In this document: positions 7,661-23,629 of the stretch, one piece after another | Numbering within the stretch: position 1 is the first letter of the stretch | Layout of the letters: every line of letters begins with the position of its first letter | Origin: Escherichia phage vB-Eco-KMB43 | Sequence record: OR525698.1 | DNA: 64,000 bases | Direction: 5' to 3' (one strand) | Position numbers and translations under genes: made by a program | The notes under the pieces: model-generated | The model's input: the letters and a program-made list of their open reading frames with translations, nothing else | The model's database searches: none | Told to the model about the DNA's origin: nothing

Positions 7661-7954
7661 TTAACCATTAATCTTGTTTTTGACTACAAAGGATCGGAAC
7701 TCATCAAAACCACCGATATAATCACCGTCATAGAAAATCTGCGGCATGGTGGCAATAACTTCTACCCCTGCGCGATCCTGAATGTCGGCAATGATAGAAT
7801 CAATCTTTACCGGACGACCGTTTTCGTCTACACCATCATTAACCGGAATGTAGATGTAAGGGATCTTACGCGATTCACAAAGGCGCTTTGCATTCTGGCA
7901 ATACTTACAGTTGTAACCTTCAAAACCAAAAATTTCTACCATGTTATACCTCAT
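7661..7954 (-). CDS. nrdC: glutaredoxin/thioredoxin (RNR electron donor)
   Basis: CKYCQNAKRL active-site CxxC and C-terminal MPQIFYDGDYIGGFDE resemble T4 NrdC as recalled. Confidence 0.85.
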   Translation of the reverse strand: MRYNMVEIFGFEGYNCKYCQNAKRLCESRKIPYIYIPVNDGVDENGRPVKIDSIIADIQDRAGVEVIATMPQIFYDGDYIGGFDEFRSFVVKNKING

Positions 7955-8699
7955 TCAGTTCTATATCAAGTTCATTTTCAATAATATAGGCATTAACTGC
8001 CCGTGCCGCATCATCTTCTGTGTCAAATCTTCCTATATACACACCGCGAACTTTAGCACCGTAATTACCTTGTTTTGGTACTTTGTAAACGTATCTATGA
8101 CGGGAACTTGCTGCTTTTTGGAGCTTCTTGCCATATTCAGACTTTGCATATTCTATATCATCAATCTCGTTTATACAAGACCTATCACCAAAATGTTTCA
8201 ACGCGGCAAGATTATATGCATACGCCGCGCCGATCTCGGAGGGAAAATATCCTAAATGTATCGACTTCCCATCCAACATTATTGCACCAGTCCAATAACC
8301 TTTATTCTTATTAAACGACACACCTTTATACTTCGAATATGTTTTGCATTTGGTCTTGCTCATATTCATATTATTTTGTTTGCGTGTCGTCTCTCTAAGG
8401 TTTTCAATGCGGCTATTATAACGATCTCGGTCTTTATGATCTATATACTTAGGACAATGACCATGAAACATATGATAGATAACACGGTGCATACGTTCGT
8501 ATCGCTCGCCAGTCCATACAATACGATACCCATCGGGGGTATCACTTCCAGCTAATCCGTTTATAACACCTTTTCGGTGCGGGTGAATCTTCCACCTAAG
8601 AAAACCATCATCATAATAAAACCGTGAATGATATAAATCATATAAACGTTTATCTTCTGGAGTCTTGTGTATAACCTCATATTTTAACATTGGTGACAT
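7944..8699 (-). CDS. free-standing HNH homing endonuclease with two AP2-like DNA-binding domains
   Basis: HNH core (IDHKDRDRYNSRIENLRETTRKQN) plus two YKGVS/YxYKV...GxYxGRF AP2-type repeats. Confidence 0.8.
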   Translation of the reverse strand: MSPMLKYEVIHKTPEDKRLYDLYHSRFYYDDGFLRWKIHPHRKGVINGLAGSDTPDGYRIVWTGERYERMHRVIYHMFHGHCPKYIDHKDRDRYNSRIENLRETTRKQNNMNMSKTKCKTYSKYKGVSFNKNKGYWTGAIMLDGKSIHLGYFPSEIGAAYAYNLAALKHFGDRSCINEIDDIEYAKSEYGKKLQKAASSRHRYVYKVPKQGNYGAKVRGVYIGRFDTEDDAARAVNAYIIENELDIELNEV

Positions 8700-9492
8700 A
8701 AACTTCCTTAGTATCGGATTTTTTACCCCCGCTACGATCTAAACAATATGTTTTATCCAGTTCAACAACAGAAACATCATTACGTTCGATAAAATCGAGC
8801 AAATGGTTGTTAACTTTCCCTTTGTGGTGAGTAACATTGCTTAATCCAAACTTAGCACCGCTAGACATTAATGATTCTATCCACATGTAGAATTTAATCT
8901 CTTCTTCTTCACTCCAGAACTTATTATATTCTGCCGACGTGATCCAATATGGCGGATCAAGGAAAACGAAATCACCTGGCAAGATCTCGATCTCGTCATA
9001 GCGACCAGACGTAAAACTGATTCGACCGTCTTTGTTTTCTTCCTTAAAATTCAGGACACGCTCTACCGCGTTTTCGTTAAAAGTCCGGCGACCAAAATTA
9101 GCATTAAATTCGCCCTTCCGGTTATGGCGGTTAATGTTGCTAAAACTATGCTGAATCAACACAAACAGCGATAGCGGATCTGGATTCTCATTATACTTCT
9201 TACGGAATGCCATGTAAGCGTCTTTATCTTCGCGAGACAAACCATTTTCGGCAATAATCCGCTTGATCGTAGAAACCGGATCAGGACACTCGTCAATGGC
9301 CTTGTAAGCGTCAATTAAGCGGTGATCATAGTCATTAGCCAGCACATCCCCTTCGACGTACAGAGACACGCTCAAGCCGCCACAAAAGGCATCAACAAAG
9401 CGGTTATAGTGCTTAGGGAAATACTTACTAACACCGGGCAATAACTTTTCCTTATTGCCAGTATAGGGAATTAAACCTAATGCTTTCTTCAT
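8677..9492 (-). CDS. dam: DNA adenine methyltransferase (Dam-type, N6-A)
   Basis: YTGNK, FVDAFCGGLSV (SAM site) and DPPY motifs; near-collinear with T4 Dam as recalled. Confidence 0.9.
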   Translation of the reverse strand: MKKALGLIPYTGNKEKLLPGVSKYFPKHYNRFVDAFCGGLSVSLYVEGDVLANDYDHRLIDAYKAIDECPDPVSTIKRIIAENGLSREDKDAYMAFRKKYNENPDPLSLFVLIQHSFSNINRHNRKGEFNANFGRRTFNENAVERVLNFKEENKDGRISFTSGRYDEIEILPGDFVFLDPPYWITSAEYNKFWSEEEEIKFYMWIESLMSSGAKFGLSNVTHHKGKVNNHLLDFIERNDVSVVELDKTYCLDRSGGKKSDTKEVYVTNVKI

Positions 9493-12127: not shown

Positions 12128-12368
12128 AGTTTACCCACTCAACAAGATCTTTACCTAACTCGAAAGCCCATTCTCGGTCTTGCTTTACATTTTGTAGGTA
12201 TGGACTTTCCGACACTCGACGAAGTGATCTTGTCGTAACAAGAATGATCCCAGGAATGTTCGGATGTTCCTTTCCATATACAATAGGACGCGAGTCACTA
12301 TCAATACCCTGTAAGAAGGTGTATCCTGAATCACTTAGGATCATATACATTTTCATTTCATACATCAC
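12027..12368 (-). CDS. hypothetical protein
   Basis: ORF track; several in-frame ATGs near the start. Confidence 0.45.
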   Translation of the reverse strand: MMYEMKMYMILSDSGYTFLQGIDSDSRPIVYGKEHPNIPGIILVTTRSLRRVSESPYLQNVKQDREWAFELGKDLVEWVNCEDKNQRNHERKIARIVQRRKLDEIKNRILQSM

Positions 12369-12622
12369 AGTTTCCTCAACCAGTTATTAAAGCGAGTAAA
12401 CCATGATGCTTTTCGTGCTTCTTTTACTTTATATGCACGCAAACCACTGAAACACCATTCATAATCATCACTGAAACATGATTCAACAGGAACACCCGCA
12501 TTTCGTAGTTCTCTGGTCTTTATCATGAATCCTTGACATAAGGGGCGACCTTCAACAATGATAGGAAGTTTAACTTTTTCCATGAAAGTATACCCAGCAC
12601 GGTCAATAATTTCAATCTTCAT
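12365..12622 (-). CDS. small hypothetical protein, YEWCF family paralog
   Basis: MKIEI...YEWCFSG shared with 12633..12845. Confidence 0.55.
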   Translation of the reverse strand: MKIEIIDRAGYTFMEKVKLPIIVEGRPLCQGFMIKTRELRNAGVPVESCFSDDYEWCFSGLRAYKVKEARKASWFTRFNNWLRKL

Positions 12623-12632
12623 AATATAATCC

Positions 12633-12845
12633 TCAATTAGTTATAGCGCGTGCTTCGTTGCCAGTAAAGCACCATTCATACTTACGATTATGAATACCTG
12701 AAACAGATACACCAGCTTTGATCAATTCTCCAGTTGCCACAAGAAACGATCCGCCAAACTTCTTACCTTCTACAACAATTGGTAATTCAACACCTTTCAT
12801 AAAGCTAAATGCAATATCTTCTAAAGTAAAAATTTCAATTTTCAT
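12633..12845 (-). CDS. small hypothetical protein, YEWCF family paralog
   Basis: MKIEI...KYEWCFTG; adjacent paralog. Confidence 0.55.
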   Translation of the reverse strand: MKIEIFTLEDIAFSFMKGVELPIVVEGKKFGGSFLVATGELIKAGVSVSGIHNRKYEWCFTGNEARAITN

Positions 12846-15664: not shown

Positions 15665-15894
15665 GATTATATTTTATTCACGTCCATTTGTATAGTAGTG
15701 TTTGAATCGACCTTTGCTAAACTAGTTAAACATAGTAACCAATTCACCATCCCTTTCCAATGATAACCCTTCCTCGTCTTAGACGGGTCTTCCGATTCGG
15801 CAGTAATTGAACACGCGAAAGTATGAGGAAGCCAAATAGTTGTCTTAATGCTAGTATTCTTTTACTTCTGGTATGCATCCCACGGTGACTAACA

Positions 15895-20727: not shown

Positions 20728-21426
20728 CTAACCACGGGTATAGTGTTCCAGAACAACTGTCAGATGAATATATTCTAATAAATCTTTCCAAAAGTCAACA
20801 TCTGGTTCTTCCGGCATACCGTTTTTCTTTGCCTCTTCACGAGCGAGTTTAACACGCTCGTAGAGATCTTTCAATTCTTCCCGCACATTATCAAAGGTTC
20901 TTTCTCCTAACTTACACGCTAAAATAGAAGAACGTCGCGCGAGCGGGAATTGTAGATCACCTGTCTGATAGATTTCAAGTAGCTGATAACCAACACGCAG
21001 AGCATGAGAAAGATCTTTCCAGTTACTGAAATACTTTTCAGATTTGGCTACCTGCTTTTTGAGATAGCCAGACAAACCCCACATACCAACATGATAGAAT
21101 TTATCTCGATGTGTTCGGATGTATTCCCATTCTCTGGAGGATTCAATCAACATGTTACTAGGAGCGTGCACCATGTCAATAGCGCCGATATCGCCTTTAC
21201 ATGCCAGATTGATAAACCGTTTTAGACTGAACATATTAACATCAATATCGTCTTTGGTGTTCTTGATACCTTGACCGCTAGTGCTTTGGTCATAGTGTTC
21301 TTTCATCGATCCTAAGATAATTTCTTTCGCAGTCGGAACAAAGATACCACGATAATCTTTATCGGAATTTTCAGTATCAAGGCCGTATAAGTGAGATCCG
21401 AAGACCATTTTAACCATTGTATGCAT
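20728..21426 (-). CDS. nucleotidyltransferase-fold protein (pol-beta/MNT-like GS...D.D motif) with C-terminal helical domain
   Basis: MVFGSHLYGLDTENSDKDYRGIFV fits the GS-x(9-13)-D-x-[DE] minimal nucleotidyltransferase signature. Confidence 0.55.
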   Translation of the reverse strand: MHTMVKMVFGSHLYGLDTENSDKDYRGIFVPTAKEIILGSMKEHYDQSTSGQGIKNTKDDIDVNMFSLKRFINLACKGDIGAIDMVHAPSNMLIESSREWEYIRTHRDKFYHVGMWGLSGYLKKQVAKSEKYFSNWKDLSHALRVGYQLLEIYQTGDLQFPLARRSSILACKLGERTFDNVREELKDLYERVKLAREEAKKNGMPEEPDVDFWKDLLEYIHLTVVLEHYTRG

Positions 21427-21470
21427 AATTAAACCCTCAGTTGATTAAGAGATTGCATCATATCATCATA

Positions 21471-21512: not shown

Positions 21513-21929
21513 TTAGAGAGATTCGGTAAAGGTACGAGCGATAACATCACGTTGCTGGTCTGGAGTCAGACTATTGAAGCGCACTGCGTAACCAGAAACG
21601 CGAATTGTAAGCTGCGGGTACTTCTCAGGATGTTCAACAGCGTCCAGCAACATTTCTCGTAACAATACGTTAACATTCAAATGCTGACCACCTTCGACAA
21701 CCGGAGCACCATTATCTACAATCACCGGACGGAAGCTAGTTGTGTGCAGTGCCAGCGAATCGACGTCTTCTGCGGTGATCACATGGTCTTCTGCGAAAGT
21801 TTTACTAACAATTACTTTAGCGCCGATCAGTGCTTTCGGTTCGGATACCAGAATCATAGGCGCGAAGTGTCCACCAATAATAGTACCTTTATGTTCACCT
21901 TTCATGATTTGAATTGCTTTAAATTCCAT
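21513..21929 (-). CDS. grcA: autonomous glycyl radical cofactor (GrcA/YfiD-like)
   Basis: C-terminal ~60 aa ([12 protein letters not shown]...[36 protein letters not shown]) near-identical to E. coli GrcA as recalled. Confidence 0.8.
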
Positions 21930-22618: not shown

Positions 22619-23194
22619 TTATTTTGGATCTGGGAAATTCAATAGAGCATATTCTCCATAAAATTTCCTAGCTGCATTATCATAAGCGATTGCAGCTTCG
22701 ATTTCTGTGTCATATTGTCCAAGAACATGTCTTTGTAGGTTGACCATTATACTAGCTCTCCATTTCTTACGCAAATCCTTCCTGTTACACTTACTAACAC
22801 CCTTATACACACTAGAAAACTTTTTAGACTTCTTCTTTCTATTATGTTGATTTTGCGCGTCGGTTGCCTCCCTAAGATTTGGAGGATTGTTATTAGCAGG
22901 ATTACCGTCAATATGATCAATTAATCTAACTTGCGTCCCATGTTCTAGAAACCAAACAACCCTATGCACGAATAAATGAACTCTAGGAAGACCGTCATCT
23001 CTACTATGCCAAAATCGAAGATGACCATCTTTATTTGTTCTGACTTTAACTAAATCGCCGTGTTTATATCTACTCCCTAATGGTCGTCCTTTGATAGCTT
23101 TACTATCGACTCTATAATATAAGATACCCTCTATATGAGCATATCTAAGTTTTATCTCGTTTTGTAGGGATTCATCCCAATATTTAAAAGCCAT
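22619..23194 (-). CDS. free-standing HNH homing endonuclease with AP2-like domain
   Basis: HNH core IDHIDGNPANNNPPNLREATDAQNQHN and AP2-type YKGVS...W.A.I segment. Confidence 0.75.
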   Translation of the reverse strand: MAFKYWDESLQNEIKLRYAHIEGILYYRVDSKAIKGRPLGSRYKHGDLVKVRTNKDGHLRFWHSRDDGLPRVHLFVHRVVWFLEHGTQVRLIDHIDGNPANNNPPNLREATDAQNQHNRKKKSKKFSSVYKGVSKCNRKDLRKKWRASIMVNLQRHVLGQYDTEIEAAIAYDNAARKFYGEYALLNFPDPK

Positions 23195-23239
23195 TTTATA
23201 ATCCTCACAAAGCCAGCGATTAAGCTGGCTTGATTTTAG

Positions 23240-23629
23240 TTATACCGGGTCTGGATATACCTTTTTATCGAGTTCCATATGCGGTCCGTCTTTAAAAGTA
23301 ACCCAATCAACACCGCAGATAACAGGAACACCCAATTCTCGACCAGCTTGTTTAAATGCATCCGCGATCATGCGGTAGTATTTCATGTTCCATGTATCCT
23401 TATCTTTCGGATACGCTACAACGTCAACCGCGAAACCGTGAAGATGACGAGATTTCATAGTCTTAGATTTACCTTCCGCAACATATTTCTTTTGCGTTTC
23501 TAGACTACGTACACCTTCCGTAATACCAAAATCGACCGGAGTCAGTTCTAACGCACGATGAACGACTTTTACCAGGTCAGGATGCACACCAACAAGCCGA
23601 TCTTTGCTTCTTTGAGATAATTTAAACAT
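23240..23629 (-). CDS. peptidase M15-like protein (VanY/L-Ala-D-Glu peptidase fold), candidate endolysin
   Basis: SRHLHGFAVDV and DWVTFKDGPHMEL resemble the H-x6-D...H zinc site of M15 peptidases; no signal peptide. Confidence 0.6.
   Translation of the reverse strand: MFKLSQRSKDRLVGVHPDLVKVVHRALELTPVDFGITEGVRSLETQKKYVAEGKSKTMKSRHLHGFAVDVVAYPKDKDTWNMKYYRMIADAFKQAGRELGVPVICGVDWVTFKDGPHMELDKKVYPDPV

Follow-up and report, generated by a model that had tools for sequence, protein, structure and literature searches.

Two predicted free-standing HNH-AP2 homing endonuclease genes, each linked to a diverged end of the neighbouring gene, in a Krischvirus coliphage

Introduction

Between nrdC and dam of Escherichia phage vB-Eco-KMB43 lies an open reading frame that most near-identical phages lack, and a comparable one stands beside the endolysin gene, raising the question of whether these are intact homing endonuclease genes and how they came to occupy their present sites. 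The 64,000-nt stretch analysed here (the window) derives from the genome of a Krischvirus (RB49-like) coliphage with RB49 relatives 94–98% identical to it. A first-pass annotation had proposed two free-standing genes that combine an HNH nuclease core with AP2-type DNA-binding repeats, at 7944–8699 and 22619–23194. Both coordinate pairs proved exact, and both reading frames, designated HEG1 and HEG2, lie on the minus strand. As proposed, HEG1 is located between nrdC (7661–7942, minus strand) and dam (8677–9492, minus strand), and HEG2 lies next to the M15 endolysin gene (23240–23629, minus strand). Each is a separate ORF in a short intergenic gap, outside introns and inteins and with its neighbour genes intact, so that the description as free-standing is borne out. 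A tblastn search of the window with both proteins returned no additional HNH-AP2 copy.

Earlier publications recognise the HNH-AP2 class (PMC2993671, Table 5; PMC5714182, group 2; PMC10448857). It was tabulated in 2010 for RB49 and JSE, with two HNH-AP2 homing endonuclease genes credited to JSE (PMC2993671, Table 5), and PMC2248197 and PMC10448857 (citing Magnani 2004) describe HNH-AP2 genes as dispersed and free-standing.

Results

Domain architecture of HEG1 and HEG2

HEG1 (7944–8699, minus strand) encodes a protein of 251 aa whose assignment to the homing endonucleases is based on its ORF, Pfam and PHROG matches and annotated orthologues, including a match to PHROG 99 ('HNH endonuclease') at E 3e-56. 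Its HNH_3 (beta-beta-alpha-metal) core spans residues 70–111 (8367–8492, minus strand) and is located by Pfam PF13392 (E 6e-14; 51.8 bits against a cut-off of 24.8), by alignment to I-HmuI and by Foldseek. Within this core, residues D87, H88, N100, and N109 align with D74, H75, N87, and N96 of I-HmuI (PDB 1u3e) and are invariant in an alignment of 12 sequences. The structural model of HEG1 matches I-HmuI (1u3e_M) with a Foldseek probability of 0.96 and an rmsd of 3.9 Å over 97 columns; the model is of moderate confidence because a word-indexed protein search returned just 13 homologues, leaving a shallow alignment.

The first AP2 DNA-binding domain of HEG1 (residues 122–168; 8196–8336, minus strand) is supported by Pfam PF00847 (E 1e-8; 35.6 bits against a cut-off of 33.3), by a phmmer match to the AP2 domains of WRI1 (E 3.8e-10) and by the model, in which it forms three strands and a helix across residues 127–173. 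A second, divergent AP2-like module at residues ~202–241 (7977–8096, minus strand) is weak by sequence, the AP2 match of 14 bits (E 0.065) being the sole Pfam match of the C-terminal 65 aa. In the AF2 model, this block (pLDDT ~58–82) adopts strands at 202–206, 213–217, and 220–225 followed by a helix at 228–241, the same strand and helix layout as the first AP2 domain. The best fold match of the HEG1 model is the double-AP2 protein WRI1 (E 1.4e-5, 157 columns), and comparison with ERF1 (1gcc) gives a TM of 0.77. As modelled, HEG1 thus consists of one clear AP2 module and one divergent AP2-like module behind the nuclease core.

HEG2 (22619–23194, minus strand; 191 aa) is assigned by its ORF, Pfam and PHROG matches, the latter to PHROG 99 at E 1e-43, and by a counterpart in JSE. 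Its HNH_3 core occupies residues 75–116 (22847–22972, minus strand), as indicated by Pfam PF13392 (E 2.6e-10; 40.2 bits against a cut-off of 24.8), conservation and Foldseek. Residues D93, H94, N106, and N115 were located by alignment to HEG1; across 45 sequences, H94, N106, and N115 show no variation, and conservation of D93 is at least 90%. The HEG2 model (pLDDT 94) matches 1u3e_M at E 1.8e-3 and probability 1.00, with an rmsd of 3.5 Å over 105 columns. The AP2 domain at residues 129–180 (22655–22810, minus strand) falls under the Pfam PF00847 cut-off (E 2e-5; 25.2 bits against 33.3) and is placed by model superposition: it superposes on the AP2 domains of TEM1 and ERF1 at 1.0–1.8 Å, with an rmsd of 1.0–1.1 Å and 41% identity to the TEM1 domain and a TM of 0.82 to the GCC-box domain of ERF1 (1gcc). 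HEG2 is accordingly predicted to carry a single AP2 domain, its fold confirmed by the pLDDT-94 model. The proposed combination of HNH core and AP2 repeats therefore holds for both genes with respect to the HNH_3 core and the presence of AP2, while multiple AP2-like modules occur only in HEG1. The catalytic histidine and asparagines, whose absence would have counted against the proposal, are present in both proteins (H88, N100, and N109; H94, N106, and N115).

Family assignment and comparison with known systems

The closest solved relative is I-HmuI from Bacillus phage SPO1, which shares with both proteins the nuclease core and the D-H...N...N arrangement (fold probability 0.96–1.00), whereas sequence identity is just 22–28% and the I-HmuI gene lies inside a group I intron. 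I-HmuI carries a helical/HTH C-terminal DNA-binding region instead of AP2, and it nicks one strand. Among T4 genes, SegF, SegG, and MobE are free-standing homing endonucleases known for 'intronless homing'. Like HEG1 and HEG2, T4 free-standing homing endonuclease genes are ORFs between conserved genes with a patchy presence in relatives, and they spread by break repair that co-converts flanking markers (PMC2993671). The families differ, however: Seg enzymes are GIY-YIG proteins and Mob enzymes classical PF01844-type HNH proteins of His-Me group 1, a type that often has Cys-based metal-binding motifs, both without AP2, whereas HEG1 and HEG2 combine HNH_3 with AP2, and the His-Me group 2 takes in the I-HmuI/HNH_3 and AP2 architectures while Mob stands in group 1 (PMC5714182). 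Membership of the T4 Mob-type family was rejected because Pfam, searched at E up to 0.1, gives HNH_3 and no PF01844; HEG1 and HEG2 resemble the mob genes by lifestyle, not by family. The activity of the T4 enzymes is experimentally established, whereas the nucleases of HEG1 and HEG2 are predicted from sequence.

The same order of N-terminal HNH(N) and C-terminal AP2 is found in the HNH-AP2 and HNN-AP2 proteins of cyanobacteria, Tetrahymena, and phages Xp10, OP1, and Xop411, and the same two-part architecture in the IPA-HNH genes of vibriophage ICP1. The HNH-AP2 proteins of cyanobacteria, Tetrahymena, the Xanthomonas phages and ICP1 are nevertheless distant in sequence, and the ICP1 genes have diverged beyond the reach of the Pfam HNH_3 profile that HEG1 and HEG2 match strongly. 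The closest paralogues occur at other T4-like intergenic sites, namely regA/gene 43 and 55.x/gene 47. NCBIfam gave zero matches for the two proteins. PADLOC matched only generic 'homing endonuclease' models, and a role in a defence system was dropped on that account. Collectively, HEG1 and HEG2 very probably belong to the HNH-AP2 class as intact, free-standing genes for homing endonucleases, with an I-HmuI-type HNH_3 (His-Me finger) core joined to AP2.

The dam–nrdC site of HEG1

HEG1 is tightly fitted between its neighbours, both of which are identified by profiles and by the annotation of relatives: dam, a D12-class N6-adenine methyltransferase gene, on the upstream side and nrdC, encoding a glutaredoxin/thioredoxin, on the downstream side. 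HEG1 begins with an ATG at 8699, placed out of frame within the final codons of dam and producing a 23-nt overlap, and its TAA stop falls in the ribosome-binding region of nrdC, 1 nt from the nrdC start. In RB49, MIZ4, G2248, and kvi, the site appears as a 729-bp gap (7957–8685) with dam and nrdC spaced by 8 bp. HEG1 is present in 7 of 58 related records, the remainder having a clean empty site.

Presence of the gene coincides with a variant 3′ end of dam, defined by allele comparison (8700–8965, minus strand). This tail accompanies HEG1 in 7/7 records, while all 51 records lacking HEG1 carry the RB49-type tail. Over ~280 bp it is 58–72% identical in nucleotides and ~79% in amino acids to the HEG-less allele; the variant tract begins at 8686, inside the HEG1 ORF, and ends at ~8890 in comparison with MIZ4. 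The nrdC flank, in contrast, is ~99% identical to HEG-less phages. The variant dam end is probably a co-converted, cleavage-immune tract. As to its origin, a distant blastn search with HEG1 and the dam tail and a tblastn search with the variant dam C-terminus matched only Krischvirus records; in the latter, the nearest other dam tails are of RB49 type (79–81% aa identity), and all else falls below 60%.

The endolysin–vs.8 site of HEG2

HEG2 is located between the M15 peptidase endolysin gene, which lies upstream and was identified by profile searches, and vs.8. In HEG-less genomes its site corresponds to a 644-bp gap (22635–23278). The gene is present in 13 of ~60 related records, and the others (~45 without HEG2) show a clean empty site. 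Here too the upstream gene carries a variant 3′ end by allele comparison (23240–23325, minus strand), comprising the last ~27 aa of the endolysin. This tail of ~85 bp has ~73% identity to the HEG-less allele (~27% different) and is found in all 13 HEG2-positive records with a match of at least 98.6%, whereas the spacer downstream of HEG2 is ~98% identical to the HEG-less allele.

The left junction of the HEG2 cassette, mapped by alignment to HEG-less phages, is the unstranded 16-nt segment TTATTTTGGATCTGGG (22619–22634), which codes ...PDPK-stop in HEG2 and, in those phages, in the endolysin gene. Close HEG2 homologues mostly terminate at, or a few residues from, LNFP(D/E). Given this shared PDPK-stop and the position at which the homologues end, the last codons of HEG2 appear to be left over from the original endolysin 3′ end. 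The endolysin gene is separated from HEG2 by a cassette-borne spacer (23195–23239, minus strand), which contains the GAGGA ribosome-binding site of HEG2 and a hairpin, AAGCCAGC-TTAATC-GCTGGCTT (23210–23231), at which the G2248 annotation places a terminator. Comparison of database records revealed no donor lineage of the HEG2 cassette outside Krischvirus.

Diversity of the cassettes and expression signals

The first-pass annotation had regarded both genes as marks of recent insertion and had suggested a comparison with endonuclease-free relatives. That comparison identified precise empty sites for HEG1 and HEG2, each gene being present or absent at the same site among phages 94–98% identical, and recent insertion is upheld by the linkage of each gene to a diverged neighbour-gene tail and by cassettes far less diverse than their flanks. 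Specifically, nucleotide diversity among HEG1 carriers is 0.0047 in HEG1 and 0.0079 in the dam tail against 0.022–0.066 in the flanks, and among HEG2 carriers it is 0.0056 in HEG2 and 0.0033 in the endolysin tail against 0.022–0.062, so that both cassettes are 3–10 times less diverse than their own flanks. The pattern is also asymmetric, with upstream gene tails 58–73% identical to the HEG-less alleles and downstream flanks ~98–99% identical. Together, the one-sided diverged tail and the low cassette diversity are consistent with recent horizontal spread through homing in which co-conversion acted on one side.

Eight T4-late motifs, TATAAATA, occur in the window, none of them near HEG1 or HEG2, and sigma-70-like matches around both genes are at the level of shuffled sequence or chance, giving no promoters of their own. 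Since a dedicated promoter was not found, expression of both genes would depend on read-through.

Discussion

Competing accounts of the two genes

The same genes could be read as inactive or decaying remnants, immobile and kept by vertical descent alone. Decay of homing endonuclease genes after fixation is known, for example in the degenerate HNH-AP2 series of Xanthomonas phages (PMC2248197), and both the promoter search and the degenerate sequence of the second AP2 module of HEG1 would agree with it. We nevertheless regard this as unlikely, given full-length ORFs in all carriers, intact catalytic D-H, N, and N residues and the HEG2 fold at pLDDT 94, while the 3- to 10-fold lower diversity of the cassettes relative to their carrier backbones favours recent horizontal movement over long vertical descent. 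Direction of change presents a separate issue, as presence and absence alone would equally allow an ancestral gene deleted in most Krischvirus genomes rather than inserted in a minority, and hyperplastic regions of T4-like phages often undergo small deletions. Such a history is highly improbable: 51 HEG1-less and ~45 HEG2-less records have an identical, precise and functional junction together with a different upstream tail, and independent losses would not also swap 85–280 bp of the neighbour gene. Cassette diversity well below that of the backbone, and final HEG2 codons that seem to derive from the HEG-less endolysin 3′ end, weigh in the same direction.

The co-option of homing endonuclease DNA-binding domains as regulators, as in plant AP2 factors and in CapR of the ICP1/PLE system (PMC10448857), lends some appeal to a function unrelated to homing. 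HEG1 and HEG2 would then be accessory DNA-binding or nicking proteins, acting in regulation, in competition with satellites or phages or in attack on host DNA, and spreading through ordinary recombination by virtue of their usefulness. The wholly intact nuclease core, the occurrence of each gene in just ~12–22% of otherwise near-identical genomes and profile searches that give homing-endonuclease families only make this account quite improbable, and the exact gene-junction position with a one-sided diverged flank is a specific footprint of homing with co-conversion.

Proposed mechanism of homing

Homing by intact endonucleases, the preferred reading, would proceed as follows. On co-infection with a HEG-less Krischvirus, the enzyme would use its AP2 module or modules to bind an extended site and would nick or cut the HEG-less genome near the empty site; a double-strand break is not assured, since the nearest relative of solved structure, I-HmuI, acts as a nickase. 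HEG1 would most likely target the 3′ end of RB49-type dam, and HEG2 the terminal ~85 bp of the RB49-type endolysin gene. T4-type recombination-dependent repair would then copy the endonuclease gene and the adjoining variant gene tail from the HEG-carrying genome, and the variant tail, co-converted with the gene, would confer on that genome immunity to cutting. Cleavage activity, target sites, and the exclusion of related phages that the first-pass annotation associated with such genes are extrapolated from the T4 seg and mob genes.

To judge from sequence comparison, the HEG-less dam and endolysin genes may contain the targets in their 3′-terminal parts, and fine mapping narrows the probable target to ~85 bp for HEG2 and ~200–280 bp for HEG1. 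The diverged tails could also be mere donor sequence brought in by recombination, distinct from the recognition site. We tentatively consider, at somewhat less than even weight, that each endonuclease gene and its diverged upstream-gene 3′ tail form a two-part mobile cassette in which immunity is determined by the tail and the target resides in the HEG-less version of that tail. If true, homing would rewrite the methyltransferase C-terminus (the last ~95 aa, from just past the DPPY motif) and the endolysin C-terminus (the last ~27 aa), the 16-nt segment encoding PDPK-stop at the HEG2 junction would preserve the footprint of an original ectopic, microhomology-mediated invasion, and the source of that invasion would be an unsampled Krischvirus-like lineage.

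Relation to annotated genes in published phages

HEG1 corresponds to GEC-3S ORF63 (YP_009118746, 'Putative HNH homing endonuclease'), which has the same length of 251 aa and the same dam/nrdC position and was published in 2012 as a GEC-3S-specific putative homing endonuclease (PMC3528706). Its orthologues in GEC-3S, Sf20 (gp204), ELT3 (ELT3_198), phiS (gp263), PHB13, and pEJ01 show 98.7–99.6% aa identity, and those of GEC-3S, Sf20, ELT3, and phiS are annotated as putative HNH homing endonucleases. The window backbone differs from these phages by 2.5–3.6%, while the gene itself shows no substantive difference. HEG2 corresponds in the same way to JSE EpJSE_00105 (191 aa; same endolysin/vs.8 position; no substantive difference), with further orthologues in G2248, G5211, SAP, TB34, JK32, FL04, Whisky, phiS, pEJ01, PTE-Eco09, and OZ035808, and its cassette is at least 98.6% identical to theirs. 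Annotation of these orthologues varies among hypothetical protein, homing endonuclease, and AP2/ERF factor, with SAP, TB34, JK32, and FL04 using homing endonuclease or AP2/ERF protein.

HEG1, HEG2, and the HNH-AP2 class are already known, and because both genes and their family are annotated in published relatives, the finding is correct but ordinary. Conceptually nothing is new, free-standing HNH-AP2 homing endonuclease genes having been described before, as has the way they affect mosaicism in T4-like genomes, and practical value is limited. Within this genome, the two genes account for local mosaicism in two places, the tails of dam and of the endolysin gene, and the HEG-linked dam and endolysin alleles encode proteins different from those of the common alleles, a point relevant to Krischvirus comparison or therapy engineering. 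HEG1 and HEG2 are the only differences of their size between the window and RB49-type genomes; in comparison with RB49, MIZ4, G2248, and kvi, the window has just one further insertion, a 205-bp small-ORF segment.

Gene context and domain architecture

The window derives from a Krischvirus, an RB49-like T4-type coliphage with 94–98% identity to many sequenced relatives, and its 27546–64000 portion aligns collinearly with RB49 at 93.9%, free of large indels. The two homing endonuclease genes (HEGs) occupy exactly the coordinates proposed in the first-pass annotation, both on the minus strand: HEG1 is a 251-aa ORF at 7944–8699 and HEG2 a 191-aa ORF at 22619–23194. Profile matches also bear out the neighbours named there, with the order endonuclease VII, nrdC, HEG1, dam at one site and vs.8, HEG2, M15 endolysin at the other, all on the minus strand.

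In HEG1, a Pfam HNH_3 domain spans aa 70–111 (E 6e-14) and an AP2 domain aa 122–168 (E 1e-8, over the gathering score). In HEG2, HNH_3 covers aa 75–116 (E 2.6e-10) and AP2 aa 129–180 (E 2e-5), the latter at 25.2 bits, under the 33.3-bit gathering score. Both proteins match PHROG 99, 'HNH endonuclease' (E 3e-56 and 1e-43, respectively), and share 39% identity across 114 residues spanning the HNH and AP2 regions; judged by sequence, they are paralogues within one family, not recent duplicates. A tblastn search of both proteins against the window detected no further HNH-AP2 copies.

The catalytic HNH histidine and asparagine, whose absence the first-pass annotation held would count against its reading, are present in both proteins on alignment. 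Specifically, HEG1 D87, H88, N100, and N109 align by phmmer with D74, H75, N87, and N96 of I-HmuI, an HNH homing endonuclease of solved structure (1u3e), and the HEG2 equivalents are D93, H94, N106, and N115. Alignments of 12 and 45 homologues show each of these positions to be either invariant or conserved in at least 90% of sequences.

AlphaFold models HEG2 with confidence (pLDDT 94, pTM 0.87). In this model, I-HmuI is matched by the N-terminal part (E 1.8e-3, 105 columns), and the AP2 domain of Arabidopsis TEM1 can be superposed on the C-terminal domain at 1.0–1.1 Å (41% identity), as can the GCC-box domain of ERF1 (TM 0.82). The AP2 assignment for HEG2 thus stands on the model even though its Pfam score falls short of the threshold. 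The HEG1 model, built on a shallow alignment, is less confident (pLDDT 81); it places the HNH core ahead of a first AP2 module (strands 127–152, helix 155–173), followed by a linker helix and a second module at aa 202–241, again of three strands and a helix. Its top fold match is the double-AP2 protein WRINKLED1 (157 columns), with I-HmuI also among the matches. Because the second module is weak by sequence (sole Pfam match AP2, E 0.065), the AP2-type repeats originally ascribed to both proteins are moderately supported for HEG1 and do not extend to HEG2, which has a single AP2 domain.

Insertion junctions and variant gene ends

Relative to RB49, MIZ4, G2248, and kvi, in which 8 bp separate dam from nrdC, HEG1 corresponds to a 729-bp gap at 7957–8685. 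The HEG1 ATG (8699, coding strand) lies out of frame within the final dam codons, 4 nt behind an AAGGAAG ribosome-binding site, and its TAA stop falls within the nrdC ribosome-binding region, 1 nt ahead of the nrdC ATG; dam and nrdC therefore retain their signals. The nrdC-side flank is ~99% identical to HEG-less phages, whereas the final ~280 bp of dam (8686 to ~8965; to ~8890 versus MIZ4) show 58–72% DNA identity to the HEG-less allele, and the aligned C-terminus ~79% protein identity. This divergence begins immediately after the DPPY motif, whose codons (8950–8961) coincide with the far edge of the variant tract against RB49, kvi, and G2248. Against MIZ4 that edge lies ~70 bp nearer HEG1 (region 8890–8965), so cross-over points vary among lineages and the strictly HEG1-linked part is only ~200 bp (8686–8890). 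In phiS, one additional C in a C-run near the dam 3′ end, at ~8725 in the window, frameshifts the final ~15 codons, and dam is annotated there as truncated; the extra base may reflect an error in sequencing or a genuine lesion adjoining the HEG.

At the HEG2 site, HEG-less phages lack a 644-bp stretch (22635–23278). The left junction is a 16-nt segment at 22619–22634, TTATTTTGGATCTGGG, which codes for ...PDPK-stop in HEG2 and likewise in the endolysin gene of phages lacking the HEG. Most close HEG2 homologues stop at LNFP(D/E) or only a few residues from it; the stop of HEG2 and the codons just before it thus look as if left over from the original endolysin 3′ end, which would make this a microhomology junction. 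The inserted cassette carries its own spacer, with a hairpin at 23210–23231 and a GAGGA ribosome-binding site, and a substitute 3′ end for the endolysin gene (23240 to ~23325, final ~27 aa) that is ~27% different from the HEG-less allele. The endolysin terminates in ...VYPDPV with HEG2 and in ...KYPDPK without it.

Distribution and sequence diversity

HEG1 is present in seven of 58 matching records (GEC-3S in two records, Sf20, ELT3, PHB13, phiS, and pEJ01) and missing from the remaining 51. Its linkage to the dam tail is perfect: the variant tail occurs at ≥99% in 7/7 carriers and the RB49-type tail in 51/51 non-carriers. HEG2 occurs in 13 records (JSE in two records, G2248, G5211, SAP, TB34, OZ035808, Whisky, phiS, pEJ01, JK32, FL04, and PTE-Eco09), all of which match the whole 864-bp segment at ≥98.6%, and is missing from ~45. 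Both genes are present in phiS, pEJ01, and the window.

Across its seven carriers, HEG1 has a nucleotide diversity of 0.0047 and the dam tail linked to it one of 0.0079, against 0.022 in the gp49/nrdC flank and 0.045–0.066 on the opposite side. Seven HEG2 carriers give 0.0056 for HEG2 and 0.0033 for the endolysin tail, against 0.062 in vs.6–vs.8 and 0.022–0.029 on the opposite side. The precise empty sites of HEG-less relatives and the lower diversity of the cassettes agree with the earlier proposal that the genes mark recent insertion points. The nearest non-identical relatives (51–52% identity) lie at other T4-like intergenic sites, regA/gene 43 and beside gene 47, and tblastn places family members in 1666 phage records.

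Proposed homing model and alternatives

Domains, catalytic residues, and empty sites together support the reading of HEG1 and HEG2 as free-standing HNH-AP2 homing endonuclease genes. At the sequence level, near-identical cassettes, each with foreign sequence on one flank only, sit in diverged backbones, the pattern that intronless homing with co-conversion produces; the general mechanism is known from T4-related phages (PMC2993671). The AP2 module(s) would probably bind a long site, and the enzymes would probably nick or cut HEG-less Krischvirus DNA close to the empty site; recombinational repair off a co-infecting HEG-bearing genome would then copy the HEG and the adjacent tail. Because divergence is limited to the upstream gene, the predicted targets lie in the 3′ end of RB49-type dam for HEG1 and in the final ~85 bp of the RB49-type endolysin gene for HEG2, and the variant tails would be immune alleles. 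These tails could instead be mere donor sequence, with cleavage elsewhere nearby. As I-HmuI is a nickase, two routes are, by analogy, equally plausible: a direct double-strand cut, or a single-strand nick that replication turns into a break. A search around both genes detected no promoter of their own, and expression is assumed to occur by read-through from the upstream genes.

Decay of both genes into immobile remnants is unlikely, given intact ORFs and catalytic residues and low cassette diversity. Co-option for a regulatory or competitive role without homing is a still weaker candidate: it leaves the one-sided flank replacement unexplained, and profile libraries return homing-endonuclease families only. 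Deletion in the majority of Krischvirus, rather than insertion in a minority, is highly improbable against uniform empty junctions, tail replacement linked to the HEG, and the endolysin remnant at the HEG2 end.

Relation to known elements

Both genes are already known. ORF63 of GEC-3S (251 aa) is the same gene as HEG1 and was counted in 2012 among two homing endonuclease genes that GEC-3S alone carries in the RB49 group (PMC3528706); its orthologues carry an HNH homing endonuclease annotation in several records. HEG2 is the same gene as JSE EpJSE_00105, and orthologues elsewhere are annotated as homing endonuclease or AP2/ERF protein. A 2010 table of HEGs in T4-related genomes has an 'HNH-AP2' column listing one for RB49, two for JSE, and six for RB16 (PMC2993671). 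This architecture is grouped with I-HmuI in His-Me finger group 2 (PMC5714182), has been reported from Xanthomonas phages (PMC2248197), and occurs in divergent form in ICP1 (PMC10448857). Membership of the T4 Mob family was rejected on a differing HNH profile, although the lifestyle is shared. The present analysis adds base-level junctions, perfect HEG–tail linkage, the diversity contrast, and narrowed predicted target regions, all routine for the HNH-AP2 HEG class.

Other variable sites

Positions 21441–21466, between nrdC.11 (20728–21426) and vs.6 (21513–21929), mark the unoccupied site of a third free-standing HEG. A 500–600 bp endonuclease gene resides there in JSE (EpJSE_00101, 531 nt, 'Homing endonuclease') and MIZ4 (594 nt, 'HNH endonuclease'); the site is also occupied in JK32, phiS, Whisky, and FL04, with a named endonuclease only in JK32 and phiS, and holds no gene in the window, RB49, kvi, or G2248. 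At 350–590 and 1350–1860, upstream of the nrdG/nrdD region, lie small hypervariable segments with no relation to the HEGs, short patches whose megablast similarity to kvi, MIZ4, and G2248 is low or absent. An insertion of ~2 kb in G2248, at ~15712–15754 of the window, encodes the 714-aa hypothetical protein G2248_00084 and is not in the window, kvi, or MIZ4. In addition, a 205-bp segment (12623–12827), present in the window and MIZ4 and not in kvi or G2248, contributes a 70-aa minus-strand ORF (12633–12845), apparently a tandem paralogue of the adjoining 85-aa ORF (12365–12622), the two sharing the start MKIEI....
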